A stretch of 64,000 nucleotides of DNA from Eledone cirrhosa (taxonomy: Eukaryota), in assembly GCA_964016885.1 (NCBI GenBank), contig OZ024742.1, positions 191,394,001 to 191,458,000 of the forward strand, read 5' to 3'. Both the position numbers and the translations under genes were made by a program. This document shows positions 4,790-61,932 of the stretch, one piece after another (positions within the stretch are counted from its first letter, which is position 1; each line of letters begins with the position of its first letter). The notes below the pieces were generated by a model that made no database searches, was not told the DNA's origin, and saw only the letters and a program-made list of their open reading frames with translations.

Positions 4790-7050
4790 AATACTAACCA
4801 ATACTATTACTGATTTATACATTTAAATATTCTGACATCACCACAGATTAACTGTACATCATTCTCACCGCAAGGAAAACTATCCTGGAATTCAACAACG
4901 AATATTCGTCTATGAAGATACCTCCAACAATTTTGATATCACCTAAAATACAACAGTGGGCTCTTACAATGCTACCGCGGGCGCCATGGAGCCCACTTGC
5001 CAGTGGGCAACCTGGCAATCTGGCCAGTTCGTCACTGTGTATATGTACAGTATATACACATACAGCCATACACCGAGACACGCACATACACACGCATAAC
5101 GTCGACGGCTATTCCTCTTTTTCGATTATATTTTCTCTTCTTTTAAAGTTTATTATTTATATCAGTGAGGGCGGTGGATTGGCAGTATCGGTAGAGGGTC
5201 GGACGCCATGCTTTGCAACATAGAGTTACGCCCCTTTATCATCTGAGTTCAAATCCCGCCGAGGTTAACTTTGCCTTTCATCCTTACGAGGTCGATAAAA
5301 TAAAGTACCAGTAATGCACTGATATAATTGCTAGTCTTGTGCCAAAAGTAGAAACAATTATTTATAACGGTGTCTTTAGTGGCTGGCAATTCCGATGTTT
5401 ACAAGGGTAATTGTCCACGTAGTCATATATGATATTCCGTTAAAGTCTTGGTTGGAGTTAGCGAATCTTTTGTTGCAGACTTTTGTCATCATGAATTCTT
5501 TTGCGATTCTTTTAAAAACGTTCTGCTTCGAACTTAATGACTCCGCGTTGTACTGCCTTTTAATTTTTGTTCCCAGGACACACATTCCATGCTAGTGCTC
5601 TTTGTATACCATGTGAGTGTATTTATAAAGTGATGAATTATGTAACAGGATTTGATTGGAATCATTATTTTGAATTCTTTAAATCGGAAGATTCCTCAAC
5701 TTCGCGGTGTAATTTATCGTGACGATGCCCTTTTTACTGTCTTAAACTGTTACTTAGTTAATCTTAATATTATTAAGAATAATATACTTGATCTATTTAA
5801 GCAGCATAACCTAAAAATTGAATTTGAAAACAACGTCAAACTAGCTAACTTCCTGGATATATCCCTTAATCTTGACACCGGCCTATATTACTCTTACCAT
5901 AAAGACAATCAGAATCTAAATTATGTTAATTTTAAATCTAACCACCCTATTAACGTTAAAAATGCTATAGTCAGTAATGTTGAAAAAAGAATCTCAAATC
6001 CATCTACTAATAATCTTATCTTTGACGCTAAAGCCAATTATTACAACAATGCGCTTTCCAGAGCCGGTTATCCTGACAAAATTAAATACAGTAAAGAAAC
6101 CGATCATGGAGGAACTTATAGTAATATACTTAGTTATAAGCATTTCAATAGCATAAAGAAAAGACCTAGATATAAAAATATGATTTGGTACAACGTTCCT
6201 TTTTATCTATCTATTATTAGTAATATTCCAAAACTATTTTTAGGGCCTTAGATAAATGCTTCCCTCCTTCACATATTTATAGTAAGATGTTTAATAAGCA
6301 TACAATTAAATTCTCTTATTCCACCACTTCCAACATCTCTAACATTATCTCAAAACATAATACTAAAATATTAAGTAATAAATCATATCCATCCAACACT
6401 GAGCGTCATAATAATAACAATAGTAAGCCCGACGTCAATGTTAACTCTAGGCTAGATTCTGTAAATTTAAATACGATATCAAACGTAACTTTGTCGAATG
6501 TTCATAATACCAATCTAAATCAGGAAACTTTAGCACCTATCGTAAGTAACTTCTCCAATTCAATTCCTTCTATAAATAATACTGGGTCACTTGCTAATAA
6601 CTCTAATCGTAATTGCAATTGCCCTATTAGAACTAAATGTCCTCTTAGTAACCAATGTCTTGATAAACATTTAGTGTATGAATGTAAGGTCATAACTGGT
6701 ACTCATTTTTTTACCTCTTTCGGTTCCACTTCCACTTCCTTTAAGGCAATAGTTTATAATCACAATTCTTCTTTTAAATACCAACTTAAAAGAACTAACA
6801 CAGCACTCTCAGAACTCATATGGTCCTTAAAGGATAAAAATATTAACTACAACATTTCTTGAAGAAAGGTTTGCAACACCTCTCCTTACCTTATTTCTTC
6901 CCTATCCAGAACATGTAATCTCTGCCTAGCGGAGAAGGGAGACATTTACCATTATCTCTAATTTTAATTCTAGAATAAATAGACGTACGCATTTATTTTC
7001 GCTCTGCTTGCATAAATCCCATAGATCTTTCCATATAGTATACAGCTAAT
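4790..7050 (+). mobile_element. Decayed Penelope-like retroelement (RT + GIY-YIG, possibly Naiad-type), interrupted by a ~650 bp insertion
   Basis: ILTARKTI..FDIT(M)GSY near 4860-4970; YRDD, FLDISLNL, SNHP in ORF 5652-6251; CNC..CPL..CL, LVYECKV..FGSTSTSFK, TALSELIW in 6287-6862; CNLC downstream; frameshifts and stops. Confidence 0.88.
5169..5356 (+). mobile_element. tRNA-derived SINE (MetaSINE-like core) with ~16 bp TSD
   Basis: A box TGGCAGTATCGG, B box GAGTTCAAATCC, core GCCTTTCATCCTTACGAGGTCGATAAAATAAAGTACCAG; flanks attatttatatcagtg / attatttataacggtg; many other copies in window. Confidence 0.85.
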
Positions 7051-9619: not shown

Positions 9620-10372
<753 letters not shown>

Positions 10373-22797: not shown

Positions 22798-22844
<47 letters not shown>

Positions 22845-23086
22845 TTTTCTTTATTAACCACAAGGGTTCACATAAAGTAGACATTAAGGACAGTACAGGA
22901 CAATACAGGACGGTACAAATGGGCATTTCTGCGTGTAAAAAAACAGAGGTTGAAATAAAATAACAAAGAAAAATTCCCCAATAGGGGGGAGACTTCCAAG
23001 GGACATTTGTGGAGAAAGCCCATTAAAAGACCACAGTGGCCCTGACTACCAGGGCAAGTGCCCTCTCCCAGTTTTCCACCTTTAAT

Positions 23087-26000
23087 TTACAAACACATAC
23101 TCAGTGAGGGCCCATTCATTCGGGCCATACTTGCTTCTCTCACCCATCTTTCAACAAAATGCTGGGAAGAGAGCACTTCCCTCTCTACCCTGATTTTCCT
23201 TTTCAAATGAAATTTGAAAAAGTTAATCAGGGCATCACCGAAGAGGTAAGTGCTCGTCTTCAGCCCTTTCAAACGTGTCCACCATACTATCTCTTTCGCC
23301 ATGGCCACCAGACAGATAAAAACTGCCTGCCCTTCCAGGCTAAAGGAAGGGGGCGGGGCAATCCTCACGATGGACTCAGCTGATAGCTGGATCCGTCCTA
23401 CACGTGACAGCAGGTGTTCGACATAAACCCACAAGTCAGCAATGCTCGGACACTGGACGAGTGCGTGCAGGACGGTTTCGTCGCCCTGCGCGCATCTCGG
23501 ACATGCCCGGCTGACGGCACCTCCATGCCTGTAGAGTTTATCCGGAACTGGCAAAGCTCCTCGGTAGCACTGCCAGGCCAGGGATTTCTGGAAGTTGTCC
23601 ATAGGCCCCGGCCCGAAAGTCCTTCCGAAGAGATTGTCTAGTTGATTTTCGTCGACGCCTAGAGTTTCCCCAAGTACGTCGTCGCTCTTCCCCTCCACTA
23701 ATCCCCTATAGAACGACAAGGTGGAGTTTCCACCGATCACATTGCCCGATTGGTCGAGGGCTGTGAGCGCCTGAAGACATTCCAGTCTCCAAGCGCTCCC
23801 TCTCGGTCTTCGCTTGACCCAGGACTGCAGCTCCGTCAAGGAGACGAGCTGGGGAAAAACGTGTCTTGCAAACGGCGACCACACCTGATCACCGTCGAGG
23901 AAGAGGTGGAGATGTCGTAGCCTGAGCGCGTGTCTGCGCATCATCAGCCACGGCATGCCCAGCCCTCCACGTAGCGGGTGTTGACAGCAGATGGACCGCC
24001 TGACCATCGGAGCGCGTCCCTTCCACAAGAAGCGAAAGAGCAAACGCTCCAGCGCAGTCAGGCGGGGCTTAGGACAAGGTACGACGGTCAGGCGGTAGTA
24101 GATGACGGATGCGATGTACGCATTCGCCACCTCCGCTCGACCTTTCAGGGATAGCTTCCTCTCGGCCCATTTCTGGGTGAGAGAAGCCACCCTGCTCGTC
24201 ACCTCGTCCCAGTTTTTGTCCGTCTGGAGGTCTGGACCGAACCAGACCCCTAGCAATTTAACCGGTCCGTCCATCCAGCGCCCGACGACGCTGTTGGACG
24301 GCAGGGACCTGCCTCTCCAGGTGCCGAGCTGCAGGCCCACTGACTTTTCCTGGTTGATCATTGCTCCTGTCACCGCTTCGTATTCTCTTAGTGTAGTGCC
24401 GATCGCCTCGATGTGTTTGGCGTTCGACACCACTACGGTGACATCGTCGGCATATGCTGACACGGATCTTCCGCATCCTAGTTCGCGCGGGACCCCCCTC
24501 AACGTCTCCAGTTTGTGCAGTAATGGCTCGAGAGTCAATACGTACAATAGGGACGAGAGGGGACATCCTTGGCGGACCGAGCGCATGATGTTGAACGGTT
24601 CCGAAAGGTGACCGTTCACTCTCACTACAGAGCAGATGTCGCTGTGCATGGCAGCGATCCAGCCTCTGAAGACGGGCCCAAAGCCAGCCGCCCTCAGGAC
24701 TGCCGCTAGGTAACGATGGTCGACCCTATCGAAGGCTTTCGACTGATCTAAATTGATCAAAGACCCACCCGTGCCAGGTTCCCTAGCTACCCTCTCTACG
24801 ATGTATCGCATGAGGTGGAGGTTGTCGTGGATGGATCTGTCGGGAATGGCGCATGTCTGTGCCTCTCCCACCAGACCACCAACGACAAGCGCCAACCTCT
24901 TTGCTAGCACCTTGGCCAAAATCTTGAACTCTGTTGTTTAGCAGAGTTATGGGCCTAAAATTATCTATGTTATCCCCCTTGTTCGGATCCTTTCTCAGCA
25001 GCGCCACCGCTCCTCGGCTCACAGAGCTGGGAATTCTCCCGTTCTGTTGCCAGTTGCAGTAGACGTCCGCCAAGAGGCCTCCGAACAAGTTTGGCATTTG
25101 TACGTAAAGTTCATAGGGCAGACCATCCAAACCAGGCGATTTGCCCCTTGTGCAACTAGTCATTGCATCCCGTACTTCAGCGGTTGTTATCGGCTTTTCG
25201 CAACACTCCGCCTCAGTGGCCGAAAGCCGCGGCAGTCCGTCGAGGTAGACACTAAAGTCCATCCCTCGATCCGGCCCGCCACTGCCCCCGAACAGTTGAG
25301 CGAAGTGTCGCTGAAAAGCTTCACACATTTGCCCGGGATCGAGTAGCATGCGCCCGTCGTGGTCCACCAAAGACCGGATCGTGGCTTTGTTGCCACGACG
25401 CGCCTCCGCCACTCGGGCCCATTGAACGGCTTTCGTCCCCTCGTGTCTGAGAGCACGCACCCTAGCTCTGACAACGCAGCCTTCGTGCTTTGCATTGAAG
25501 AATTGGTCAAGGGCCAATTTCGCCGCAAGTACGTCGGTCGCGATGCCTTTGCTAAGCGCCTCATCTAATTTTCTAACTAATTCTCCCTCTGCTCTATTTT
25601 TCTCTATTGCTAAAGTCTTACTAAACCTAATGGACTCTATTCTAATTGCTCTTTTCAGAGCAAACCACCACTTGTTGTTGACGATGGCCCCCGTCAACGC
25701 CCGCTTAACTAGTTCGCTAATCCGGTCTCTGTAGGCCTTGCGCGCTGGTAAGGACGCGTTTAGCTTCCAGTAGCCGGGTCCTCGTCTATGAAGCCTATCT
25801 AAGTCAAGCACACAGATCACGAATTTGTGGTCCGTGTAGCTGACTATCTTGAATTGTGGACAGCCTATGCTAGACCTATCTATTTCCCTACAAAATACTC
25901 TATCTAGATATGATCTGGATGACCCTATGCAATTTGTCCAAGTCCACATTGGTACATTCGGGAAATCCATTCGGTACCTGTCAGACAGTTCAAAACGTCT

Positions 26001-26509
26001 GAGCAGGTTGGTGAGACTCTTGCACCCTCCTTCCCTATCCACTAATCCCACACAATCCCAGCGTGCATCTAAGATCCCGTTCCAGTCGCCCACTAACACT
26101 AAAGAGCGGGACGTTCCAAGAAAGGTCTCCAGACGCCGGAAGAAAACAGGCCGCCCTGCTCCTGTCGGGGCATAGACGGCCACTAACCTGAAAGCTTGCC
26201 CGTCTCCGCTGGTCACGTCCAGCACCACCAACTTACCTTCTGGGTCCAGGAAGATGGCCCGTATGGCAAGATCCAAACCTCTCCGAAAAAGCACAGCAAC
26301 TCCTCCCCCCCCGATCGCGGACGGCTGGGAGATGCGTACACATCGTAGCCGCCGAAGATCGGTGCGAAAGCCTGTGCTTCGGAGATTCTGGTCTCGCTGA
26401 TGGCCACTACATCTATGTTTAGTGACCTGAGGTCGTTGAGCAGGTGGCCCTGCTTCCATGACGACCCCAAGCCACGCGCATTTATGCTGCCTATTCTGAG
26501 TGAGGTCAT
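23087..26509 (-). pseudogene. LINE ORF2 (AP endonuclease, reverse transcriptase, C-terminal CCHC) with 2 frameshifts
   Basis: MTSLRIGSINARGL, SET, GDWN, YLDRVF, TDH; KSPGLDG, FRPITLLN, DQSKAFDRV, RQGCPLS, YADD; CPRC..ETVLHALVQC; shifts at ~26305 (G run) and ~24935. Confidence 0.92.
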
Positions 26510-26543
26510 GTTGAAAAGGAGTGGAAAAGATGGGAAAGACCAC

Positions 26544-28529
26544 TTACCTTACTTCTCGTAGGGGAAGGACGGCTTTTCCATCCTTTTCACTGCTTGTGGC
26601 CTCCTCAGGAAGGATGTCCTTATAAATCCTCCTGGAGAGTGCTTGTCGGAAGTCTCCGATGTCTTTGGGGAATTTTTGTTTTAGTGTCATGTACGTTTTC
26701 TGTGTGATGCGAGTGATTTGTATGTGTGGAGGTGGTGTGAATTTTGGGGTTGTTGTGTAGTCTTTTTCTGTGATGCTGGTGTTGTGTTGGATGTAGTGTA
26801 ATAATTGCTTGTTGTTCAAATTTAATGCTGTGTAGTGTGTATCGTTTTGGTTGTTTTGTTTTGTTTGCGTTTGTTGTGGGTTTCTTTCTGTTTCGAATTT
26901 TGGTGACTTTTGTGGTGTAGGTGATGGTGGTGCTGGGGATAATGATGGTGATGGTGTTGGTGTTTGGGTTGATGGGGTTGGTGATGCTGGTGTGGATGGT
27001 GGCATATCTGTCCTAACTTTTTTGTTTCTTAGTTTATTTGTTTCCCTCTGTATTTTGTTTTTGGAGGGGGAAGGAAGAGAATTTTTTCTTTTTTGGTTTC
27101 TTTTTTTTTTTCCGGATATCGTTTCCCACTCCTCGTCGTCACAATCTGTCTCCAGTTGTGATAGGCCGGGGAGTGGAAAATCCTCCACAGCCGTTAGTTT
27201 TGGTTGTGGTGTGGTGGATGGTGTAGGCGCTGGTGCTAGTTCTGAAGCGTTGGGTGGTGGTGGTGTTGGTTTTGCTGGTGGTGGTAGTGGTGTTGGTTTT
27301 GCTACTGTTGCTGGGGTTGTTGCTGTTATAGTTGCTTCTGTTGTTGCTGCTACAGTTGTTGCTGCCATCTCTGCTACTGGTGGTGTTGATGGTTTTGTCA
27401 CTGGGGTGGGTAGGAGAGGTGGCCTCAACGTTTTAGCCTGAGGGCAGAAAGCCCTTAGGTGGGTTCCTTCACCACAAACGACACACCTAGGTCTTCTGCC
27501 CTCGACAATTACCGTGAGGTGGCTGCCGTCAGTGAGGTCTATTACCTCTGGGATCTCCTCAATGCTTTTTTGGTCCGCTTGGATCAGGAGCTCCATCCCA
27601 GATCCGGACCAGTTTTCCTGCTTTTCTTTTGCTACTGCTATTATTTTCGTGTTGGCTTCGATGCCGGTGAGGACAGCCGCTATTAGCCAGGGAATTTCGA
27701 TGGCCGGTGGAACGTGGGTCACCCTGATCTTTACGAGTCTCTGGCCACAATAGCTTGGGACGAGTGTGAGGTCGTCACTTTTTAATGGGGCCATGGAGTG
27801 TTCTCTAGCCTCCTCTGGTGTTTCAAAGAACACATCCACGGTTCCATACTTTTGCCCACGTCTGATGTGGGTTTTTCTTGCCCACACATGTCCCAAAGCT
27901 TTTTGGATTTGGGACTCGGATGCCCGTTCCACTCGGCGCGATTTTACATTTATTGTTCTATACGACACGGTGCACAGGCGCCGATGCTCCATTTTATTAG
28001 GTGGGGGGGTGAGGCTGACCCTGTACCCATCTTTCTTTACCATTTGTTTGGCATTTTCTAAATCTTCTTGGGTTACCGTGAACGCTTCGAATTGTTTTGC
28101 TACGATGGCGAAACTGAGGGTCGGTTTTATAATGTCATTGTTGTTGTTGTTGCTATCGTTAATATTAATTTTATTTTCAGTTGTGGTGGTTGTGACGTCA
28201 GTCGTCTTTGGTGGGGAAGAGTCCATTTTGCTTGATTTCATTTCGACGTCACGAGTTAATTTATTTTTGTCTTCTTTTGTTTCTGTTGTCGCGGTGGTGG
28301 TGGTGGTGGTGGTTGTTGCGGTGGTGGTGGTGGTGGAGGGTTTAACACCTGCAGTCATTGGTAATGGCGGGAAATGAATGTCTGCCTGAGACAAATTTAA
28401 AATATTGCTACTGCTTATATTTTTTTTTGTGTTGGCAAACGTAGTAACATTTACAATGGTGGTGTCGGTGTGAGGTGTTATTTTGTGAGGAAGGCTTTCA
28501 GCTGCTTCGTGCAGAGGGGAATTAGCCAT
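26544..28529 (-). CDS. LINE ORF1 protein (661 aa; RRM-like region, CX2CX4HX4C knuckle, Pro/Thr-rich linker, basic tract)
   Basis: Uninterrupted ORF; CVVCGEGTHLRAFC; homologous frameshifted ORF1 at 46065-48079. Confidence 0.85.
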   Translation of the reverse strand: MANSPLHEAAESLPHKITPHTDTTIVNVTTFANTKKNISSSNILNLSQADIHFPPLPMTAGVKPSTTTTTATTTTTTTTATTETKEDKNKLTRDVEMKSSKMDSSPPKTTDVTTTTTENKININDSNNNNNDIIKPTLSFAIVAKQFEAFTVTQEDLENAKQMVKKDGYRVSLTPPPNKMEHRRLCTVSYRTINVKSRRVERASESQIQKALGHVWARKTHIRRGQKYGTVDVFFETPEEAREHSMAPLKSDDLTLVPSYCGQRLVKIRVTHVPPAIEIPWLIAAVLTGIEANTKIIAVAKEKQENWSGSGMELLIQADQKSIEEIPEVIDLTDGSHLTVIVEGRRPRCVVCGEGTHLRAFCPQAKTLRPPLLPTPVTKPSTPPVAEMAATTVAATTEATITATTPATVAKPTPLPPPAKPTPPPPNASELAPAPTPSTTPQPKLTAVEDFPLPGLSQLETDCDDEEWETISGKKKRNQKRKNSLPSPSKNKIQRETNKLRNKKVRTDMPPSTPASPTPSTQTPTPSPSLSPAPPSPTPQKSPKFETERNPQQTQTKQNNQNDTHYTALNLNNKQLLHYIQHNTSITEKDYTTTPKFTPPPHIQITRITQKTYMTLKQKFPKDIGDFRQALSRRIYKDILPEEATSSEKDGKAVLPLREVR

Positions 28530-28738
28530 TTTTTTTCAAAGAAATTTTTGGATAATAATAAAAGTTAAAATTTTGGGCACAAGGCCCCAATCTTTTTGGG
28601 TGTCCTTTTCGGAAAACAATGTATGTGTGCTTATAAACAGTTTACAATAAAATTTTCCATAAATGGCAATTTTTAAACAAACGGAAATAACAAACCTTTG
28701 CGGAGCTCACGATAATACGATTTCCTACGTAGGTCGCC

Positions 28739-28769
<31 letters not shown>

Positions 28770-28805
28770 TCATGTATATGTGTGTACTTTTATGCACATG
28801 AATAT

Positions 28806-29034
<229 letters not shown>

Positions 29035-29425
29035 GCTTACCTATATTTTCCTATATATATTAGTGTGCATCGTCTGGCATAAAAATCGATAATCGAGAAG
29101 TAGAATAGATAACATTTTTCTCATAAAATACAATGTTTTATAATAGAGAGAAAATATATAGTCAGTTATTCTGAAATAATTGCATTCTGTAAATATGACT
29201 TAATGATCAATGATGTAGTGTAATAAGAAAGTGGAACAATAGAAGATATTCATAATTAGAACACTATTTAACGCTATGAGGAATACAGGCTAAGACACTT
29301 ACATTGCCAAATAAATATACCAAGCCAATTTAAAAATATATATTCTATTACAGTAAATAGAAATTGCCTGTACAGTGTAGAGATTGCTGATTAGACATAT
29401 TAATGATATTATTATTAATAATAAT

Positions 29426-45796: not shown

Positions 45797-45850
<54 letters not shown>

Positions 45851-48800
45851 GGCGACCTACGTAGTAAATCGTATCATCGTGCGCTCCGCAAAGGTTTGTT
45901 AATTTCAGTTGTTTAAAATTACCATTAATGGAAATTTTTTATTGTTAGCTGTATATAAGTGCACATACATTGTTATCTGAAAAGGACACTCAAAAAGATT
46001 GGGGCCTTGAGCCCAAAATTTAAACTTTTATAATTATCAATCAAACATTTTTCTTTGAAAAATCATGAATGACTCAGAGTCACTCCTTCCTCACAAACTA
46101 ACACCTCACACCGACACTACCATTGTAAATATTACTACGTTTGCCAACACTAAAAATATAAGCAGTAACAATATTTTAAATTTGTCTCAGGCAGACATTC
46201 ATTTCCCGCCATTACCAATGACTGCAGGTGTTAAAACTGCCACCACCACCACCACCGCGACAACCACCAGCCCCCCCCCCCCCCATCCACCACCACCACC
46301 ACCGCGACATCAGAAACAAAAGAAAAAAATAAATTAACTCGTGATATCGAAATTAATTCAACCAAAATGAACTCCTCCACACCGAACACCACTGACGCCA
46401 CCACCACCACCACCACAACTGAAACTAAAAAAATTATTAATAACAAAAATAACGATAACAACATCAACAATGACATTAAGAAAACTACCCTGAGTTTTGC
46501 CAGAGTAGCAAAACAGTTCGAAGCAATTCAGGTAACTCAGGAGGAATTAGAAGAAGCCAAAAAAATGGTAAAGAAAGATGCGTACAGGGTCAGCCCCCCC
46601 CCCCCCCCCCCCCCCCTCCTACCCACCTAATAAAATGGAGCATCGGCACCTATGCACCGTGTCTTATCGAACAATTAATATAAAATCGCGCCGAGTGGAA
46701 CGGGCATCCGAGTCCCAAATCCCAAAAGCTTTGGACATGTGTCGGCAAAAAAACCCACATCAGATGTGGGCAGAAATATGGAACCGTGGACGTGTTCTTT
46801 TAAACACCACAGGAGGCGAAAGAACACTCCATTGCTCCATTAAGAAGTGACGACTTCACACTCGTCCCAAGCTATTGTGGCCAAAGACTCGTAAAGATCG
46901 GGGTCACCCACGTTCCACCGGCCATCGAAATTCCCTGGCTAATAGCTGCCGCCGTCCTCGCCGGCATCGAAGCCAACACCAAGATAATCGAAATAGCGAA
47001 AGAAAAGCAGGAGAATGGTCCGGATCTGGGATGGAGCTCCTGATCCAAGCGGACCAAAAAAGCATTGAGGAGATCCCAGAGGTAATAGACCTCACTGACG
47101 GCAGCCACCTCACCGTAATTGTCGAGGGCAGAAGGCCTAGGTGTGTCGTTTGTGGTGAAGGAACCCACCTAAGGGCTTTCTGCCCTCAGGCTAAAAGGTT
47201 GACGCCACCTCTCCTACCCACCTCAGTGACTCAACCATCAACACCACCAGCAGCAGAGATGGCAGCAACAACTGTAGCAGCAACAACAGAAGCAGCTGTA
47301 ACAGCAACAACCCAAGCAACAGTAGCAAAACCAACACCACCACCACCCAGCGCGTCAGAACTAGCACCAGCGCCTACATCATCCACCACGCCACAACCAA
47401 AACCAACGCCTGTGGAGGATTTTCCACTCCCCGGCCTATCACCACTGGAGACAGATTGTGACGACGAAGAGTGGGAAACGGTATCAGGAAAAAAGAAAAA
47501 AAGAAACCAAAAAAGAAAAAAAATTCTCTTCCCTCTCCATCCAAAAACAAAATACAGAGGGAAACAAATAAACTATCAAACAAAAAAGTTAGGACAGATA
47601 TGCCACCATCCACACCAGCATCACCAACCCTATTACCACAAACACCAACACCATCAACACCATTAACCCCAACACCATCAACATCATTAACCTCAACACG
47701 ATCATCACCAACACCACAAAAGTCACCAAAAAGCGAAACAGAAACAAACCCACAACAAACGCAAACAAAACAAAACAACCAAAACGATACACACTACACA
47801 ACATTAAAATTGAACAACAACCAATTATTACACTACATCCAACACAACACCAGCATCACAGAAATATACTACACAACAACCCAAAGGTTCACACCACCTC
47901 CACACATACAAATCACTCGCATCACACAGAAAACGTACACGACACTAAAACAAAATTTCCCCAAAGACATCGGAAAGTTCCGACAAACGCTCTCCAGGGG
48001 GATTTATAAGGACATCTTTCCGGAGGGGGCTACAAGCAATGAAAAGATGGAAAAACCATCCTTCTTCTACGAGAAGTAAGGTAAGTGGTCTTTCCCATCT
48101 TTTCCACTCCATTTCAACATGACCTCACTCAGAATAGGCAGCATAAATGCGCGTGGCTTGGGGTCATCATGGAAGCAGGGCCACCTGCTCAACGACCTCG
48201 GGTCACTAAATATAGATGTAGTGGCCATCCGCGAGACCAGAATCTCCGAAGCACGGCTCTTCGCACCGATCTTAGGCGGCTACGATGTGTACGCATCTCC
48301 CAGCCGTCCGGGATCGGGGTAGGAGTAGCTGTGCTTTTTCGGAGAGGTTTGGATCTCGTCATACGGACCATCTTCCTGGATCCAGAAGGTAAGTTGGTGG
48401 TGCTAGACGTGACCAGCGGAGACGGGAAAGCTTTCAGGCTACTGGCCGTCTATGCCCCGACAGGAGCAGGGCGGCCTGATTTCTTCCGGCGTCTGGAGAC
48501 CTTTCTTGGAACGTCCCGCTCTTTAGTGTTAGTGGGCGACTGGAACGGGATCTTAGATGCACGCTGGGACTGTGTGGGATTAGCGGATAGGGGAGGAGGG
48601 TGCAAGAGCCTTCCCCACCTGCTCAGGCGTTTTGAACTGTCTGACAGGTACCGATTGGGTTTCCTGAATGTGCCAATGTGTACTTGGACAAATGGCATTG
48701 TGTCATCCAGATCATATCTAGATAGAGTATTTTGTAGGGAAATAGATAGGTCTAGCATAGGCTGTCCACAATTCAAGATAGTCAGCTACACGGACCAGAA

Positions 48801-51743
48801 ATTCGTGATCTGTGTGCTTGACGTAGATAGGCTTCATAGACGAGGACCCGGCTATTGGAAGCTAAACGCGTCCTTACCAGCGCGAAAGGCCTACAGAGAC
48901 CGGATTAGCGAACTAGTTAAACGGGCGGTGACGGGCGCCATCGTCAACAACAAGTGGTGGTTTGCGCTGAAAAGAGCAATTAGTATAGAGTCCATTAGGT
49001 TTAGTAAGGCTTTAGCAATAGAGAAAAATAGAGCAGAGGGAGAATTAGTTAGACAATTAGACGAGGCGCTTAGCAAAGGCTTCGCGACCGACGTACTTGC
49101 GGCGAAATTGGCCCCTGACCAATTCTTCAATGCAAAGCACGAAGGCTGCGTTGTCAGAGCTAGGGTGCGTGCTCTCAGACACGAGGGGACGAAAGCCGTT
49201 CAATGGGCCCGAGTGGCGGAGGCGCGTCGTGGCAACAAAGCCACCATCCGGTCTTTGGTGGACCACGACGGGCGAATGCTACTCGATCCCGGGCAAATGT
49301 GTGAAGCTTTTCAGCGACACTTCGCACAGCTGTTCGGGGACAACGGCGGGCTGGATCGAGGGATGGACTTTAGTGTTTACCTCGACGGACTACCGCGGCT
49401 CTCGGCCACTGAGGCGGAGTGTTGCGAAAAGCCGATAACAGTCGCTGAAGTACGGGAGGCAATGGCTGGCTGCACAAGGGGTAAATCGCCTGGTTTTGGA
49501 TGGTCTGCCCTATGAACTTTACGTACAGATGCCAGACTTGTTCGGAGGCCGCTTGGCGGACGTCTACTGCAACTGGCAACAGAACGGGAGAATACCCAGC
49601 TCTGTGAGCCGAGGAGCTGTGGCGCTGCTGAGAAAGGATCCGAACAAGGCGGATAACATAGATAATTTTAGGCCCATAACTCTGCTAAACACAGAGTTCA
49701 AGATTTTGGCCAAGGTGCTACCAAAGAAGTTGGCGCTTGTCGTTGGTGGTCTGGTGGGAGAGGCGCAGACGTGCGCCATTCCCGAAAGATCCATCCACGA
49801 CAACCTCCACCTCATGCGATACATCGTAGAGAGGGTAGCCTAGGGAATCTGGCACGGGTGGGACCTTGATCAATTTAGATCAGTCGAAAGCTTTCGATAA
49901 GGTCGACCATCGTTACCTAGCGGCCGTCCTGAGGGCGGCTGGCTTTGGGCCCGTCTTCAGAGGCTGGATCTCTGTCATGCACAGCGACATCTGCTCTGTG
50001 GTGAGAGTGAACGGTCACCTTTCGGAACCGTTCAACATCATGCGCTCGGTCCGCCAAGGATGTCCCCTCTCGTCCCTCTTGTACGTATTGACTCTCGAGC
50101 CATTACTGCACAAACTGGAGACGTTGAGGGGGTCCCGCGCGAACTAGGATGCGGAAGATCCGTGTCCGCATATACGGACGATGTCACCGTAGTGGTGTCG
50201 AACGCCAAACACATCGAGACGATCGGCACTACACTAAGAGAATACGAAGCGGTGACAGGAGCAATGATCAACCAGTAAAAGTCAGTGGGCCTGCAGCTCG
50301 GCACCTGGAGAGACAGGTCCATGCCGTCCAACAGCGTCGTCGGGCGCTGAACGGATGGACCGGTTAAATTGCTAGGGGTCTGGTTCGGTCCGGACCTCCA
50401 GACGGACAAAAAGTGGGACGAGGTGACGAGCAGGGTGGCTTCTCTCACCCCGAAATGGGCGGAGAGGAAGCTATCCCTGAAAGGTCAAGCGGAGGTGGCT
50501 AACACGCACATCGCGTCCGTCATCTACTACCGCCTGACCGTCGTACCTTGTCCTAAGCCCCGCTTGACTGCATTCCGATGGTCAGGCGGTCCATCTGCTG
50601 TCAACACCCGCTAGGTGGAGGGCTGGGCATCCCGTGGCTGATGATGCGCAGACACGCGCTCAGGCTACGACATCTCCACCTCTCCCTCGACGGTGATCAG
50701 GTGTGGTCGCCGTTTGCTAGACGCGTCTTTTCCCAGCTCGTCTCCTTGACGGAGCTGCAGTCCTGGGTCAAGCAAAGACCGAAGGGAGCGCTTGGAGACT
50801 GGAATATCTTCAGGCGCTCACAGCCCTCCACCAAGCGGGCAATGTGATCGGTGGAAACTCCACCTTGGCGTTCTATAGGGGATTAGTGGAGGGGAAGAGC
50901 GACGACGTACTTGGAGAAACTCTAGGCGCCGACGAAAATCAACTAGCCAATCTCTTCGGAAGGACTTTGGGGCCGGAGCCTATGGACAACTTCCAGAAAT
51001 CCCTGGCCTGGCAGTGCTACCGAGGAGCTTTGCCAGTTCGGGATAAATTGTACAGGCATGGAGGTGCCGTCAGCCGGGCATGTCCGAGATGCAGCGCAGG
51101 GCGACGAAACCGTCCTGCACGCACTCGTCCTGTGTCCGAGCATTGCTGACTTGTGGGTTTATGTCGAACACCTGCTGTCACGTGTAGGACGGATCCAGCT
51201 ATCAGCTGAGTCTTTCGTGAGGATTGCCCCGCCCTCTTCCTTTAGCCGGGAAGGGCAGGCAGTTTTTATCTGTCTGGTGGCCATGGCGAAAGAGATAGTA
51301 TGGTGGACACGTTTGAAAGGGCTGAAGACGAGCACTTACCACTTCGGTGATGCCCTGATTAACTTCTTCAAATTTCATTTGAAAAGGAAAATCAGGGTAG
51401 GGAGGGAACTACTCTCTTCCCAGCATTTTGTTGAAAGATCGGTGAGACAAGCAAGTATGGCCCGTGTGAATGGGCCTACTCTGGGTATGTGTCTGTAAAT
51501 TAAAGGTGGAAAACTGGGAGAGGGCACTTGCCTTGGTGGTCAGGGTCACTGTGGCCTTTAAATGGGCTTTCTCCACAAATGTCTCTCGGAAGTCTCCCCC
51601 CTATTGGGGAATTTTCCATAGTTATTTTTTATTACATCCTCTGATTTTTTACACGCAGAAATGCCCATTTGTACCGTCCTGTATTGTCCTGTACTGGCTT
51701 TAATGTCTACTTTATGTAAACCCTTGTGTTTAATAAAGAAAGC
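45851..51743 (+). mobile_element. Full-length decayed Tx1/L1-clade LINE in (ATT)n
   Basis: Highly similar to 22844-28738; ORF1 46065-48079 and ORF2 48119-51498 broken by frameshifts, stops and a small deletion near 50570. Confidence 0.95.
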
Positions 51744-51794
51744 ATCATTATTTTTATTATTTTTATTATTATTATTATTATTGTTATTGTTATT

Positions 51795-54700
51795 CCTTGA
51801 ATCTCAGTCATTGATGTTGGTTAACTGGAAAGTCCGTTGGATTGAATATCAAGCCACTACCTGCAGCCTCAGATATTCAGGACGTATCGGAGGGTTCTCG
51901 CTGTACCAAGCAAGCATGCCTTTTGAAGCGTTCCAAAAAGCGTGAAGGGGCCGATTTTCTTTAACCATCCCTGGAAACCTTTGGAGATAGTCCCCAGTGC
52001 GCCTATGACAATCGGGATCACTTTGACTTCATGGCAGTTCCAAATCCTTTTCACCTCCCACTTTAGGTCCTGGTATCGGTTAATTTTCTCCCTCTCCTTC
52101 TCTTGCACTCTCGTGTCAATCGGGCAGGCCACATCCACAATCAGGCACGATCTTTTTTCTTTGTCCACAACCACCAGGTCAGGTCTATTGTGTTCCAGTT
52201 TTTTGTCCGTCTGTATCCTAAAATCCCACAGCACCTTCACCTGACTGTTCTCCATCACCGCCTCTGGCCTATGCTCATACCATTTCTCAGAATGTGGTAG
52301 ATTGTTTACTTTGCACAGGTGCCAGTGGATCACCCTGCCCATCACATCGTGTCTCCAGCCCTTATAGTGGGTCTGGGCTAGGTGTTTACACTCGGACACA
52401 ATGTGAGCCACAGTCTCCTCTCTCTCTCCACAGATCCTGCACAGTGGGCTAGCCTCCTCCTTGTAGATATGGTGCTTCAACCACTTCGTTTTGAGGGCCT
52501 GCTCCTGCGCAGCCATTAGCATTACTTCTGTAGCCTTTTTGAGGTCTCCTCTTCTCAACCAGTTCCATGTCTGTGGATCTCTAAATTCAGTTTTCTCAAA
52601 GAAGGTACTATGAAGGGATTTTCCCTTAAGGGTGCTCTTCCTCCTTGATGTTATTTCCTCCTTGGATATCCCCTGGCCTACTGTCCCCTCCTTCAGTACA
52701 GCTCTGAGCATTGGCTCCTTACTATAGGTCACGTATTTGTATAGGTTGTTTTTCTCCATCTGAACACAGTCCTCTATGCTGATAAGACCTCTTCCACCCT
52801 CAGATCTCCTTAGGTAGAGTCTATCGACATCACTCCTCTTGTGGAACATGTTGTAGATAGTCAATATCTTCCTAGTCTTCCTATCCATTTCTTTTTGTTC
52901 AGCAACATTCCATCTCAGAATTCCCGCACTGTACCTAATAATAGACACAGCTCGGGAATTTACTGCGCTTATGGCATTTCTGCTGTTCAGATGTGACTTC
53001 AATACGCTCCTTACTCTCCGAATGTATTCAGTTCTTAACAATTGAAGGATTTGTTGTTCTTTATGCCATCAGCCTCCAGAACGCCCAAATACTTGTATCC
53101 TTCCTCAGAGTCAATTTCCTTTATCATCTCACCTGTTGGTATCTGGATCCCGTTACTTCTGCTCAACCTACCCCTCTTCATCACAATGACTCCACATTTA
53201 CCAATACCAAACTGCATACATATATCACTGCTGAAAATACGGACAGTGTCAACAAGCACATCCAACTCCTTCTCACTTTTCCCGAAGAGCTTAAGATCGT
53301 CCATGAAGAGGAGGTGATTGATGGTAAGCTCTCCCCTTCCCAACTTGTATCCTGCTCTCACTTTTCGCAGCATAATGGTCAAGGGCATCAGGGCAAGGAC
53401 AAACAACAGAGGGGACAGGCTATCTTCACGCTTCCCAAGGATACTCCAGTTGATGTCAACTCTGTCTCCCAGGACCCCATACTCCTGTCCAGCAACTGTC
53501 TGATGTTATCTGCCACCCTGAAGATCTCCAGGCTTTTGGTGATCCAGGAATGAGGCACCATGTCAAATGCCTTTCTGTAGTCTATCCATCCCATGGCAAG
53601 ATCAGTGTGTCTCCTCCTGCAATTCCCCATTACCATCTTATCAATAAGCAACTGGTCCTTTGTACCACGTGACTTCTTTCGGCATCCTTTCTGTTCGTCC
53701 GGTAACAAGTTGTTTGTGTGGAGGTGATGGTAGATTTCCTCAGACACAATGCTCGTCAACAGTTTCCACATTACGGGCAGACATGTGATAGGTCTATAGT
53801 TGGTAACATCATTACCCTTGATTCGGTCTTTCATTATCAGAACTGTGGTACCTTTTGTCAACCACTCTGGCACCTCACCCGACACCAAGCAGTCATTGAA
53901 CATGGCCGTCAGCTTCGGGTGGAGGGATGTTAAATGTTTAATCCAATACCCCTGCACACCATCTGGGCCTGGTGATTTCCAGTTTGTTAGTTTTTTGGCT
54001 TGCCCCTTAAGAGTTTCAACTGTGATACTCAAATCAGTCTGTTGTTGTGCCTGCTTACCGATCTCCCTCTGTACTGTCTCAATCCACCCTGCCTGGGCAT
54101 TGTGTCTAACATCCTGCTCCCATATTCCTCTCCAGAATGTTTTAGCTTGTTCCGCCCCAGGGATCAAGTCGTTGCCTCTTTCTTTCCCCTCAAGCTGTCC
54201 AAACAACATCTTCTGGTTGTTGTCGAACATGCGGTTCTGTTTATACTGACTGACTCTGTTCTCGTATCGCCTGATTTTGGCACTCTTTGCTACAATGCGT
54301 TGCTTCAATTCCTCTATGATAATATTTAGCTTTTTACTCCTAGTTTTGTATTTTATTTCCAGTCTATTTTTAGTGCCTATGTTTTTTAGTGTCCCATTCA
54401 GTAGTGACTCAAGCTTTCCTATGTCATTTCTCATTTCCCCGATTTGCCCACTCAGTCGCTTCTTCCACCACGGCTCTGCTCTTTCTTGTCTGTTGTTTCC
54501 TCTCGCTTTTATACCAAGTAGTTTCCTCACCGTATTTGCTGTTGCTTTGAGTATATTGTTGCACTGGTGAAGACTCCTCGCCTCAAGGTATGGGATGACT
54601 TTGTTTACCTTAGCTGTTGTTTCTTTTAACTTTTTCCTGTCTACAAATCTTAGGTTCATAGGTCTCCCACTATCATTGTTCAACTCATCTACCACTAAAT

Positions 54701-56300
54701 TTAGGATGTCAACCGAATCTTGTCCTAGCCCGTCAGCATTCATCTCCTCAGTGGCCGTATCTCTGTTCCAGGTATTATTTATCTCAGTATTCAGATCATT
54801 GTCTGCTTCGGGTGGTTCCTCCGTTCTCAGGACCTCCTCACCTTCATTTCCCGCCGGCTCGCCTGTCTGGCATACTACACCCGCCATCTCCAAGCCATTC
54901 TCTCTGCTCAGTTCCTCCAGTTCCAGCTCGCTTATCCACCCATTAGTTCTTATTACCCGAGCCTGCCCGGCCAATTTTTGTTCATCTAATTTAAATAAAC
55001 CAATCTCGTTCCAGATGTTATGCATCCGTCTCCTGTAGCCCCTCTCCTTGGGGTTACTTTTCAGGTAGCATTGCATAACAGTTTTATTCAATTCTTTCGT
55101 CCAGTTGGTTCTGGCCCCTTTCCTTCTTCTCCTTCCTCCAACATCAGCAGTATTTGGTTGACAGTCAGGTTCCTGCTGCTGAGCCAGGGGGCACCTGTTG
55201 GGTGAGAGTCTGTCACATGACGTTCTAGTCTCCATTTCACCGTTATTCGAACTGTTTATGTTCGATATTTAAACACTCTTATCGAGGATTGGCGAATGTA
55301 TGTTTACATAGCCATCTGTGGATCCGCCATCCCACTTGGCCCTTGTGTGGCATTATCACCACGCTGTATACGAACACACATAAACAAACAAACACACGGG
55401 CAGAAAGGGCCCCAAAAATGAATAAGCATAAGTTTCATTGTAATGTAGTATTCGAATGTCTGACTTAGTTTTTGTTTTTTAAGTTTTACTTTTTCCCCCC
55501 TCTTCTCTGTCCGTCCGCTTGCTTCTCTCTTCATTCTTATTTTCTTTACGTTTTTGGGGTTTCTTTTTTTGTTTTTGTTTTTCTCTGTTTGTTTTTCTCG
55601 TTTTTTGCTGTTGTTGCTGTGCTGCTTTGGTTTTGTTGTTTGTTTTTTCTTTTTTCTTTTGAGTCTATCTATATATTTTGATGCCTTCCTCTTTGTTAGT
55701 AGTAGGAATTCTATAATGTGGAAGTGGCAGCCAGCAGAGACTGGCGGCGTTGGCGATACTGAGACAGTGGTGGTGGTGATGTCGATACCGAGGCAGTGGT
55801 GGCGGTGATGCGACCGTATTACTGTAGTGATGGTGCTGTAGCGGTGGCAGCAGCAGTGAAGGAGTCAAGGGGTGGTGGCGGCGGTGATGGGATAGTGGTG
55901 GTAATGATGGCCGTAGTGAGCGGTGGCGGTGAAGGTGAAAATGCTGTTGTGTTTAGTGTACACAGATGATGGGGTGGGTGGTGTATCTAGTTTCTGGTGT
56001 TGGTGAGTTTAGCTGTCCTATATAGTGTAGCCAGAGGAGAGGAGGGGGGGGGGTTCTTCTTCTTCCATTCATAGCCATTTTTTGGGGGGGATATACAGTG
56101 TACAATACAAAGTTGAATATTTGAATATTTGAGCCTTATAACAATATATTTTGGGTCCGAATTTTTTGGGGCTCAAGCCGGGTGCTTTACGTAGCATTTG
56201 TACTAAGAGTTGTTATTTCACAAATGATTTAAATATGTTAAAAATTCAAAACTTACGGGAGCGATTTCATGACCTCCGTCACCTCGTGCGTCTTCTTCCC
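51795..56300 (-). mobile_element. R4/Dong-type RLE non-LTR retrotransposon, family B, probably full length
   Basis: ORF 55235-51869: WTKELN, WKSPGPDG, NYRPITCL, WIDYRKAFD, HLLFMDD, CRIC..ETVAHIVSEC, RHD, RPDLVV..DVACP..K..RY; GIFQG motif deleted at ~53420; (TAA)n tail; leader shared with copy at 61931-64000. Confidence 0.9.
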
Positions 56301-56371: not shown

Positions 56372-59300
56372 GTTGCATTTATCTTGCTTTATGTTCCTAC
56401 GAGTTATCACCAAGTCACAACCAGTGACCTCAAGAGACAACAAGGTCCGCAATGTTGAAGAAAGAACATACATACACACACATGCATCTTTAGGTGTTTA
56501 GACTTATGATGTACTTATATTGACAGAATCTTCCTTAGTAGTATCCATTAGTACTATCTTTTATATTTCTCCTATACGCGGGTTTCCTAGGATTTGCGAT
56601 AAGTAATCATTAGACCCCTTAGGTATCATTCCTGGAGCGCCTACAACCACTGGTATTGTTTTAGTTCTCAATTTCCACATTTTTCCAATTTCTATCTCCA
56701 GGTCCTTATACTTGCTCAATTTTTCAAATGTTTTTATAGATACATTCTTGTCTATTGGACCGGACATATCAATTAGCAGGCATACCTTCTTTTTAAAGTC
56801 CTTCAGTATTATATCAGGTCTATTTGCATCTATTTTTCGGTCTGTTTGGATGCTAAAGTTCCACAAGATTGAGATCTGATCTTTTTCAAGTATGGCAGGT
56901 GGTTGATGTTCCCACCAATTCTTTTGATGGGGCTGGTCAAAATGCTTACACATTATCCAATGTATGTATTGTGCAGCTCTGTCATGCTGTTTACGTATTC
57001 GGTTGGAGCTATAGGACTGCACATTGAAATTATATGATCAATGGTCTCTGGTTGTTTTTTACATACACGGCATAATGGGCTGCATCCATTTTTTATTATG
57101 TTGGCTTGGTAATTTTTTGTTGGCACACACTGATCTTGTGCTGATATAATCAGTCCTTCAGTCTCCGACTTCAGTCCAGAGGATGCCAACCACTGATGGG
57201 TTAAAGTTTTGCCAACATCAGGATTGTTAGCTCTTTCTGGCTTTCTTGCCATTTCTTAGCCAGTCTCTGTAGCAGTTCTTTCTTTGCAGTTACTTTTACC
57301 TGCTTTGCTTTTTCTGTGTTTTCAATTTCTGACATTTGTAGTCAATTACTGTATCTTTGTGCATCTTTTGTAATGGAGTATGATCTTTTGATGCTTTCGT
57401 GTTTCAAAACGAGTTTGATCATCCAATCATGTGATTCCCTTAGATATGTAGATAATCCAATTGTTGCTGTTTTCAACGCAATATCTAACTGGATTAACCC
57501 ACGTCCTCCTTCTTTCTTAGGGAGATATATTCTATCTGTATCTGCCTTAGGGTGATGCATTCTATGCATGGTTAAGGATTTTCTAATTTATGTATCGAGC
57601 CTACGGATCTCTGTGCTTGACCAGTTGATGACATTGTAACTGTAGGTTACTACTGGTATGGCAAGCGTGTTTATGACATCGATCCTATTCCTTGCATTCG
57701 ATTCCGTTCTTAAGATTGCTCTTACTCTGCGGTAACATTCCTTCCTTATCCTTTCCCTCATTGTCGAGTGCTTGATTCCGTTTCCTTCACAAACACCTAG
57801 ATGTTTGTAAGTTTCCTCTTGATCAAGTTCTCTTATCACATTCCCCCGATCAAGATTAATGTCTGAAATTTTCAGCAGCTTTCCTCTGGTGAACGTTGCT
57901 TTGGCGCATTTATCTAGTCCAAACTCTATTTTAATGTCATCACTGAACTGTGCCACAGTGGATAATAGCCCTTGCAATTGTTCATCATTTTTTGCAAATA
58001 GTTTCAGGTCATCCATGTAGAACAAGTGATTAATGGTTTTGTCATAGACTTTATATCCATGTTTTGTTTCATTGAGCATTTTACTTAATTGTATAAGTGC
58101 GATGCAGAATAAGAGCGGTGATAAAGAGTCACCCTGAAAAATTCCACAATTAATATTAAACTCTCGAACTTCCAGTGATTTTTTTTCACTATACAAAAGG
58201 AGTGTCGTTTTCCATGTCTTCATACTGAATGACAGGAACCTCCTGACAACGGGAGATATTTTAAAAATCTCTAAACATTTTTCAATCCAACTGTGTGGCA
58301 AACTATCGAATGCTTTTATATAATCTATCCAAGCAATTGATAGATTTTTGTGTCTATTATGACAATCTTCCAGTATCATTTTGATAACCAAAAGCTGATC
58401 CTTACAGCCATATGAGCCTCGTTTACACCCATTCTGCTCATTGGGAAATAGGTCATTTGTTATCAGGTGGTCATATGTATATTCAGTTAGGACTGATGTT
58501 AACATTTTATACATTGTGGTCAAGCAAGTTATCGGTCTGTAACTTTTGGGATTGTTTGTCTCATCAGTCTTCGGAAGCAGGGATGTAATGCCGTTAACTA
58601 GCCATGATGGTATCTTTTCTGGCTCCTTAACTATTTCATTGTAAAGTTGGGCTAACAGCTCGTGAGACTCTGTGAAGGCATTTATCCTAAAATGTTGTAT
58701 TTTGTCTTTTCCTGGGGATTTCCATTTGCTGGTTTTTCTAAGAGCCAAACGCAATTGTTCAACTGTTATATTTTACCATATTTGTTCCTTAAGGTGAGCT
58801 GTATCTTTCATTTGCCTGTCTATCCATGGGGCATGTATATTATAAACTTTTTCTTCGGCCCAGATCTTTTCCCAGAATTCTTGCACTTCCTCCTTGGGTG
58901 GTATTGATTTAACAGTTATTGTTGACTTGCCAATTTTTCTGGAGAAGCTTCTTTGGTTGTTTTTGAACATATTATTGTCCCTATAGAATCTAGATCGTTT
59001 TTCAAAGCGCCTTATACGAGCAGCTTTGGCCGACACTTTTTGCTTGATTATTTCTAGTGTATACTGTATTTTCTTTTCAATTTTCTAAGTTTAGTTTGCT
59101 TAACATGTTCACCTACTTTGTAGTTTGTTAAAATTTCTATGTCAGATCGGAGAAGGTTTATTTGGCGATTGATGTTCTCTTGCCAAGTAGATTTCTTATG
59201 GGAATTCCTTTGTTTTTTTCATTTTCTCTCCACATAAGTGAGTGGTGACTTTAGCTGATGCATAATAGAGATGATTTAAATCAGTAATGTTTCGTTTGTT

Positions 59301-60264: not shown

Positions 60265-61932
60265 TTGAGATACAATAACAGTAATTCAAACTGCAGCAAG
60301 AAGGAAAACAGCAACAAAATCCCCCCTCCCCCCCAAAAGTACACAGCCATAAACATGGCAAAAAAAGAACTAATACAATATATAAAGCAGCACACAGACA
60401 TCACAGAAAAAAACTACTACACCCCACCAACACCAAGAACTCTCCCGACAAACATAAGCATCATTGAAATCTCAATAGAACAGTAAAAATCTTTAAAACA
60501 AAAATTCCGCAACGCAGTTGGAGACTTCAGAGGGTCGGTTACCAAGAGGATATACTGACATCCTCTTGGAAACACCCATGACCAGCGAAAGGGACGGTTC
60601 TACTGTCCCTTCACCACACGATGAAGGTAAGTGACCCTTTCTCACTTGCCCCGTTTCTCATCCAACATGGCCATACTCAGAATAGGCAGTATAAATGCAC
60701 GTGGCCTGGGGTCATCTTGGAAGCAGGGTCACCTGCTCAACGACCTCAGGTCACTAAACACAGATGTGGTGGCCAACAGTGAGACCAGAATCTCCGAAGC
60801 ACAAGCCTTCGCACCGATCTTCGGCGGCTACGATGTATACGCATCTCCCAGCCGTCCCGGATCGGGGGGAGGGGTTGCCGTCCTTTTTCAGTGAGGCTTG
60901 GATCTCGCCATACGGGCCATCTTCCTAGATCCAGAAGGTAAGTCGATGGTGCTGCACGTGACCGGCAGCGAAGGCAATGCTTTCTGGCTAGTAGCCGTCT
61001 ACGCCCCAACAGGGGCAGGACGGCCAGATTTCTTCAGACGTCTAGAGACCTTTCTTGAAACGTCCCCCTCTTTAGTGTTAGTGGGCGACTGGAACGGTAT
61101 CTTGGATGCACGCTGGGATTGCGTGGGGCTAGTGGATAGGGGAGGAGGGTGCAAGAGCCTCACCAACCAGCTCAGACGTTTTGAACGGTCTGACAGGTAT
61201 CGACTGGATCACCCGAATGTGCCAATGTGGAAATGGCCAAACCGCATCGGGTCATCCAGATCGTATCTCGATAGGATATTCTGCAGAGAACTAGATAAGG
61301 CTAGTATAAGTTGTCCACAATTTAAAATAGTCGACTACACAGACCACAAATTTGTGATCTGTGAGATCGACATAGACAGACTTCATAGACTGGTTACTGG
61401 AAGCTGAACGCGTCTTTCCCGGCGCGCAAAGCCTACAGAGACAGGATTAGCGTATTAGTTAAGAGGGCGTTGACGGAAGCGGTCCTCAACAGGTGGTGGT
61501 TCGCCCTGAAAAGGGCAATTAAAGTAGAGTCGATTAGGTTTAGCAAAGGAGTAGTGATAGAGGAAAATAGAGTAGAGGGAAAGTTAGTCAGAAAGAGGCG
61601 TTTAGGACAGGCATCGCAACCGACGTGCTTGCGGCGAGATTGGCACTCGACCAATTCGTCAACGCAAAACACGAAGGCTGCGTCGTCAGAGCTAGAGCGC
61701 GTGCTCTGAAACACGAGGGGACAAAAGCCGTCCAATGGGCCCGGGGGGCAGAGGCACGACGTGGTAACAAAGCCACAATTCGGTCTTTGTCTGACCAAAA
61801 CAAGTGTGTGATGCTCGAACCCGTGCGGATGTGTGAAGCTTTTAAGCAGCACTTTGCTGAACTGTTCGAGAGCAGCGGCGTCCCGGATCGGGGCATGGAC
61901 TTCAGTGCATACCTCGACGTACTGCCACGGCT
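60265..61932 (+). mobile_element. Internal fragment of a divergent Tx1 subfamily (ORF1 C-terminus, APE domain, linker)
   Basis: MAILRIGSINARGL, GDWN, YLDRIF, TDH; ORF1 tail only loosely similar to the other two copies. Confidence 0.9.

Follow-up and report, generated by a model that had tools for sequence, protein, structure and literature searches.

In mammalian L1, a long interspersed nuclear element (LINE) with a 63-nt spacer between its two open reading frames (ORFs), and in SART1, where the junction reads UAAUG, ORF2 is proposed to be translated by an unconventional termination-reinitiation (PMC5972666). Human L1 RNAs can also be spliced, and such spliced RNAs leave processed genomic copies, named SpIREs (PMC5860796). 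Here we report the analysis of the ORF1/ORF2 junction of a LINE in a stretch of 64,000 nucleotides from Eledone cirrhosa (contig OZ024742.1, positions 191,394,001 to 191,458,000 of the forward strand, assembly GCA_964016885.1; hereafter the window), in which three copies, A, B and C, were compared. In a first-pass annotation, a splice-donor-like sequence on the ORF1 stop codon and an AG within the start of ORF2 had been proposed to delimit a 52-nt mini-intron, whose removal would fuse ORF1 to ORF2, or else to mark a conserved binding site of the U1 small nuclear ribonucleoprotein (snRNP). We found the donor-like sequence to be a conserved element of this family, and we consider it probable that the stretch is the unspliced inter-ORF spacer of a young LINE, with ORF2 read from its own AUG and with a donor-like signal in the unspliced RNA, rather than a fusion intron.

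Elements resembling an unpaired 5' splice site can bind U1 snRNP without splicing, as in the late 3' untranslated region (UTR) of papillomaviruses and in U1 telescripting, where they act on a nearby downstream poly(A) signal. The production of ORF2 from bicistronic LINE RNA is only partly understood, as is the escape of long intronless retroelement RNAs from nuclear surveillance. Neither a donor-like sequence at the stop codon of a LINE ORF1 nor an ORF1-ORF2 fusion made by splicing was the subject of any paper found in our literature searches, and the conserved donor-like element described here is new to us.

A donor-like motif on the ORF1 stop codon

Copy A lies on the minus strand, and its ORF1 ends with CGA GAA GTA AGG TAA. 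Overlapping this stop codon is AG|GTAAGT (26542..26549, minus strand), a splice-donor-like, U1-complementary sequence that is read directly from the DNA, as is the 34-nt inter-ORF spacer (26510..26543, minus strand), which is 79% pyrimidine and carries TTCAAC before the ATG of ORF2. The ATG is followed by ACC TCA CTC AG|A ATA GGC. Reaching from the GT of the donor to this CAG, the candidate mini-intron (26496..26547, minus strand) is composed of the last base of an Arg codon, the stop codon, the spacer and the first 14 nt of ORF2, and its length of 52 nt was confirmed by arithmetic. Excision of 26547..26496 would join ..E V to AG|A (R) and I G S I N A R G L in frame, a phase with a prior of one in three, and the predicted A-type spliced joint is ..GAGAAGTAAG joined to AATAGGCAGC.

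The same signals were read in copy B at 48081..48132 on the plus strand. Copy B (approximately 45820-51788, plus strand) is 91% identical to copy A over about 5.9 kb in a self-BLAST of the window; because the two belong to one family, it gives weak independent support. In copy C the homologous stretch (60627..60680, plus strand) is 54 nt long, and ORF1 ends there with GGT AAG TGA; excision at the homologous AG would there give ..CAA GAA TAG, with the ORF1 frame fixed from 26 of the 28 readable C loci. What the first-pass annotation had described at the three places (the donor on the stop, the pyrimidine tract, the CTC AG|A and the in-frame removal in copy A, the same signals in copy B, and the 54-nt stretch that is out of phase at the homologous AG in copy C) was thus confirmed by reading.

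The comparison was extended to seven lineages, designated A, C, H, D, D3, I and F, the additional ones being drawn from 800 kb of sampled genome searched with the ORF2 N-terminus. Over this N-terminus, H is 69%, D approximately 60% and F approximately 55-59% identical to A, while D3 is 80% and I 70% identical to D. When the junctions are anchored at the donor, the block RAG|GTRRGT shows identities in 5, 6 and 7 of the seven lineages before the mark and in 7, 7, 6, 6, 7 and 7 after it, and the flanks fall to 3-5 of 7. Positions -1, +1, +2, +5 and +6 are invariant in all seven. Outside the ATG, RG|GTRRGT is the best-kept block of a junction whose flanks are barely alignable. The motif takes the form AAG|GTAAGT in A, C and F, GAG|GTAAGT in H and D3, AAG|GTAGGT in D and AGG|GTGAGT in I, and the substitutions listed within it are A to G changes at +3 (I), +4 (D) and -2 (I). 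It is kept even though ORF1 reads through it in two different frames, the donor falling at codon position 2 in A, D, D3 and F and at codon position 1 in C, H and I.

An internal control is offered by AGGTAAGT, which is expected 0.07 times and is seen twice in the sense strand of the 5971-nt element. Its second occurrence lies inside ORF2 (26231..26238, minus strand), in the codons for P-E-G-K-L; it is confined to A, C and H, the corresponding bases being GGT CAT, GGT CGA or GGC AGC in the other four lineages, and it is already changed to GGTAAGC in one A-family locus, L002. As background, among 46 unrelated L1-like junctions from metagenome contigs, whose elements are 24-42% identical to the query and are not family members, GTGAGT on the stop was noted once. 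That element (L230) ends its ORF1 with GGT GAG TAA and has a 66-nt spacer that is not pyrimidine-rich. Since the motif on the stop is kept in two frames, the internal control is not kept and the arrangement is rare elsewhere, the motif is, as judged by sequence comparison, a real, family-specific conserved element.

An absence of function, with a motif shared by descent that matches the donor consensus by chance, is hardly credible to us. All lineages belong to one family in one genome and make up only about five independent branches, and other runs of the ORF1 tail are conserved as well, such as a 19-nt run 135 nt upstream that is shared by A and C. Against such passive retention, the flanks of the motif are down to 3-5 identities of 7 and the ORF1 tails of A and C to approximately 39% protein identity, and the frame over the motif has changed at least twice while its bases have not. 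As to the U1 site proposed by the first-pass annotation, its conservation is borne out by GTRRGT in seven of seven lineages and in two frames; conservation itself is not U1 binding, which would remain a putative property of the motif.

Reading frames, acceptors and the search for spliced copies

A fusion intron would have to join the two ORFs in frame, and the seven junctions can be compared in this respect. Their ORF1 ends and candidate acceptors are GTA AGG TAA GTG and CTC AG|A in A, CAA GGT AAG TGA and CTC AG|A in C, GGA GGT AAG TAA and TTA AG|A in H, GAA AGG TAG GTC and TTA AG|A in D, GAG AGG TAA GTG and CTA AG|A in D3, AAG GGT GAG TGA and ATA AG|A in I, and AAA AGG TAA GTG and ATA CAA G|CT in F. 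Only A, D and D3 would keep the frame on joining at the homologous AG (+14). The other four would lose it: C and H meet TAG immediately, the join in I is out of frame, and so is the single AG of F. Three lineages of seven, or about two of six when counted by independent branches, equals the chance expectation of one in three, and a share no better than chance indicates that fusion is not a conserved design.

The acceptor side is less uniform than the donor. In lineages A and C the AG is preceded by C, and in the remaining five by A, so that a YAG acceptor (CAG) occurs only in A and C and AAG is found in D, D3, H, I and F. The spacers are 24-40 nt long and 75-81% pyrimidine across the seven lineages, but the pyrimidine tract stops approximately 20 nt before the AG, with the ATG region in between, and the implied introns measure 42-60 nt, the shortest being that of D3 (42 nt). 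The match to the 5' end of U1 is kept across the lineages, and the acceptor is not.

Processed copies would be expected if the stretch were removed by splicing and the replicase were translated from the resulting RNA; such copies do arise from spliced human L1 RNAs. We searched the genome itself with exact exon anchors of lineages A, C and D, comparing a short gap with the full gap. With A-type anchors, a gap of 0-25 nt gave no match and the full gap 2303; with C-type anchors the same short gap gave none and the full gap 398; and with D-type anchors a gap of 0-28 nt gave none and the full gap 550. In total, 0 spacer-less copies stand against 3251 copies with the spacer in the three lineages. 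The 20-mer junction predicted by the first-pass annotation likewise had no genome match at one mismatch or fewer, and none of the genomic copies checked for this junction lacked the 52 nt. Copies with a base other than G after the donor exon, a search blind to acceptor exons that begin with G, numbered seven in A and none in D; all seven are 5-nt or 8-nt local deletions or point changes, and none is joined to distant sequence. In two A-type loci (L064 and L066), the tandem GTAAG GTAAG at the end of ORF1 is shorter by precisely one unit, a loss that resembles replication slippage more than splicing.

On these results, it is very improbable that the spliceosome excises a genuine 52-nt mini-intron from some of the transcripts and so yields a Gag-Pol-like ORF1-ORF2 fusion. 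What speaks for such an intron is the perfect AG|GTAAGT, the pyrimidine-rich tract and CAG|A of copy A, the in-frame join in A, D and D3, and a donor motif kept in seven of seven lineages. It is opposed by the 0 spacer-less copies against 3251, by the frame lost in four lineages (C, H, I and F), two of which meet a TAG at once, by the conserved ORF2 AUG and its context within the would-be intron, by an acceptor AG that is part of a conserved Arg codon and is preceded by A in five of seven lineages, and by the mere 42 nt of D3. A search for long proteins holding the C-terminal part of ORF1 found none, which is weak evidence in the same direction. The absence of intronless copies and the loss of frame are two outcomes that the first-pass annotation itself had named as telling against a splicing-controlled fusion. 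Were such an intron real, it would be a new way to a Gag-Pol-like protein; the data speak against it.

Splicing could also serve an end other than fusion, by removing the AUG and so leaving an ORF1-only mRNA, or by giving the RNA a host-like mark, with only unspliced RNA being retrotransposed. This would explain the indifference to frame, as the donor is conserved irrespective of it, and the spliced ORF1 of C and H would terminate no more than two codons past the joint. It would, however, require a strict exclusion of spliced RNA from retrotransposition (0 of 3251), its acceptors are weak and variable and its introns would be 42-60 nt, and no joint at the donor appears among the contig matches listed, the library kind being unspecified; we regard it as quite unlikely. 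In these matches, the contigs of runs X1, X4, X5 and X6 over 26200-26900 show no joint at 26495/26548, and those of X4, X5 and X6 over the whole element show none at the donor. Rare forms are lost in contigs, and the joint result counts neither way. Two X4 contigs (records 13 and 14) span the spacer unspliced. Taking every form together, any splicing of the 52-nt stretch appears unlikely. As a side observation, the depth of the X4 contigs rises to approximately 100,000 over the Pro/Thr-rich middle of ORF1 (26800-27400), against a few hundred elsewhere, and the rise is not seen in X1; the peak is probably a low-complexity repeat common to other sequences.

Coupling of the two ORFs by readthrough or frameshifting was considered as a common scheme and ruled out. 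Relative to ORF1, ORF2 lies in frame +1 in A, +2 in C and 0 in D, with spacers of 34, 32 and 33 nt, respectively; with ORF2 in all three relative frames, there is no shared readthrough or frameshift scheme. In lineage D (C3:191385758, locus L087:1758; loci L108-L137), the ORFs lie in one frame and are parted by one TAG and a 33-nt stop-free spacer, and in D3 they likewise share one frame, with TAA and a 24-nt spacer. In these two lineages, stop-codon readthrough alone would give a fusion.

The ORF2 start codon and possible roles of the motif

When the junctions are anchored at the ATG of ORF2, A is found at -3 in seven of seven lineages and G at +4 in six of seven. The context is ACCAAC ATG G in D3, I and F, TTCAAC ATG A in A, TCCAAC ATG G in C, ACCAAT ATG G in H and GCCCAC ATG G in D. 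In relatives at 40-48% identity, the ORF2 protein has 1143-1161 aa and begins with M-x-L-x-L-A-S-L-N-x-R-G-L, and its Met stands 3 to 5 residues before the first endonuclease strand, the same as here. A conserved AUG in strong context inside the supposed intron suggests that ORF2 is initiated there, and it likely starts at its own AUG.

According to the mechanism that we propose, ORF1 would be terminated and ORF2 would then be translated from its own conserved AUG, in the manner suggested for mammalian L1, either by termination-reinitiation or by scanning. GGTRAGT, the donor-like sequence that overlaps the stop of ORF1, would be a signal of the unspliced RNA rather than an intron donor, and it may bind U1 snRNP without productive splicing, which is the least certain step.

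Several points weigh against this proposal. Donor consensus, pyrimidine-rich tract and downstream AG occur together in every lineage, an arrangement that is intron-like, and the join is in frame in three lineages. The lineages H, I and D3 are represented by one copy each, and the search for spacer-less copies covered A, C and D. Splicing was judged indirectly, from genomic DNA and from contigs of unspecified library kind, and U1 binding is deduced purely from sequence complementarity.

The main rival to U1 binding is that the motif serves translation, the stops of GGTRAGTRA in two frames and a hairpin formed with the spacer aiding termination and the handing on of the ribosome. We hold this to be possible but unlikely. 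A stop triplet occupies +2..+4 in seven of seven lineages, a second stands at +6..+8 in C, H and I, and termination-reinitiation is the route proposed for L1 and SART1 in the work cited above (PMC5972666). In A, B, C, D and F, the spacer is predicted to fold back locally on the motif or on the purine-rich tail of ORF1, with z-scores of -2.2 in A, -3.2 in B and -1.6 in C. The folds differ by lineage, however, A-type copies show no compensation for their changes in the 5' arm, and stop codons alone leave the invariant G at -1, +1 and +5 unexplained. A shared conserved hairpin was also considered and was dropped, the predicted folds being different between lineages. An Rfam search of 26300-26800 returned only a chance-level snoRNA match (E = 0.51).

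Returning to the proposed U1 signal, its position can be compared with that of the poly(A) hexamers. In the sense strand, the seven internal AATAAA/ATTAAA hexamers are confined to ORF1, upstream of the motif, and ORF2 is free of them as far as position 5685. With the hexamers upstream of the motif, a simple telescripting role is unsupported by position. It is a tentative and rather doubtful suggestion that a currently active LINE family keeps either a perfect docking site for U1 or a very small intron of rare use exactly on its ORF1 stop codon and has its RNA treated as host pre-mRNA. If true, the intronless LINE RNA would be shielded from early 3' cleavage, nuclear decay or a silencing directed at transcripts without introns, and only the unspliced RNA would be copied back.

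The LINE family and its relation to known systems

Copy A extends over approximately 5.9 kb (22798..28769, minus strand), its boundaries being taken from self-BLAST and from reading of the flanks. It is bordered on both sides by (ATT)n, with a 5' flank repeat at approximately 28739-28769 and a 3' tail at approximately 22798-22843. Its ORF1 (28529..26544, minus strand; stop TAA at 26546-26544) encodes a Thr/Pro-rich protein of 661 aa with a single CCHC knuckle, CVVCGEGTHLRAFC. A Pfam search of ORF1 gave no family above its cut-off, the Pfam L1 ORF1 domain included. The nearest Atlas clusters of ORF1 are CCHC / ZCCHC3-like proteins (0.88-0.91); ORF1-like clusters point to Mollusca and ORF2 relatives to Chordata, and all of these serve as leads only.

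ORF2 (22800..26509, minus strand; ATG at 26509-26507) encodes an AP endonuclease (PF03372), a reverse transcriptase (RT; PF00078) and a zf-RVT domain (PF13966), and its nearest solved structure is human L1 ORF2p (E = 2e-21). In copy A it is interrupted by an 8-G run at 26300-26307, and copy B is out of frame at the same run (GGGGT, approximately 48300). Thirty other A-family loci all have a 6-G run here, which makes the frameshift of copy A private, and in 21 of the 30 ORF2 is open to the end of the locus. Copy C (from approximately 60.3 kb) shares 84% identity with copy A in ORF2 and only approximately 39% in the protein of the ORF1 tail; 2 nt are deleted in this copy alone, which measures 241 nt against the 243 nt of others in its subfamily.

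Several other repeats lie in the window. A long (TA)n / (TG)n microsatellite (28800-29040) stands just outside the 5' (ATT)n flank of copy A, and microsatellite-like tracts at approximately 900-1350 and 10100-10290 give many self-matches. Two further RT ORFs on the minus strand (51869-55235 and 57588-58514) belong to a different LINE group, with an RT approximately 28% identical to that of copy A.

The LINE family is very young and very large. A 221-nt junction probe is found at 100% identity in at least 40 genomic places, and 30 loci of 3.2 kb, selected because the junction probe matches them at 100%, mostly share 98-99% identity with one of their number (L002), with one at 94.9%. Other lineages are abundant as well, with 2869 first-look candidates for C, 1227 for D and 1706 for F. 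Junctions of A and D recur on the same strand at a spacing of 5.8-6.2 kb, as at C1:66402377 / 66408272 / 66414184, C1:271077287 / 271083530 / 271089758, C1:168106146 / 168111965 / 168117788 and C1:348919618 / 348925453 / 348931288, and this spacing indicates full-length elements arranged head to tail in arrays. The arrays suggest insertion of new copies into the (ATT)n tails of older ones, which would yield such an arrangement; the (ATT)n target was read from flanks on both sides in copy A alone. Thousands of near-identical copies are found in a family that has kept the motif on its stop codon through at least seven lineages, and the motif offers a compact, mutable element for probing U1 binding or stop-proximal RNA signals in LINE expression.

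Among the systems described so far, this L1/Tx1-like element resembles the Tx1 clade, as exemplified by Tx1L of Xenopus, in its two ORFs, its AP endonuclease and RT, and its apparent insertion in a repeated target, here (ATT)n. The sole Tx1-named match is 27% identical and the best unnamed matches 46%, figures that are pairwise identities rather than a tree, and named fish and Xenopus matches (P0055, P0092, P0094, P0104) reach 32-38% identity over about half of the query. With bicistronic L1-type LINEs in general it shares two ORFs, a short spacer (24-40 nt here), an ORF2 with its own AUG, and the AP endonuclease, RT and C-terminal zinc motif of ORF2; it differs from them in its 661-aa Thr/Pro-rich CCHC ORF1, its (ATT)n flanks, its head-to-tail arrays and the donor motif on the stop. 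Like human L1 and its SpIREs, it carries consensus donor sequences in the sense strand of a LINE RNA, but no processed copies occur among the 3251 junction-bearing copies, and the motif is conserved between lineages. Near-perfect complementarity to U1, the lack of a convincing acceptor and an apparent retention by selection would liken the motif to unpaired U1 elements, from whose papillomavirus and telescripting forms it differs in that the internal poly(A) hexamers lie upstream of it.

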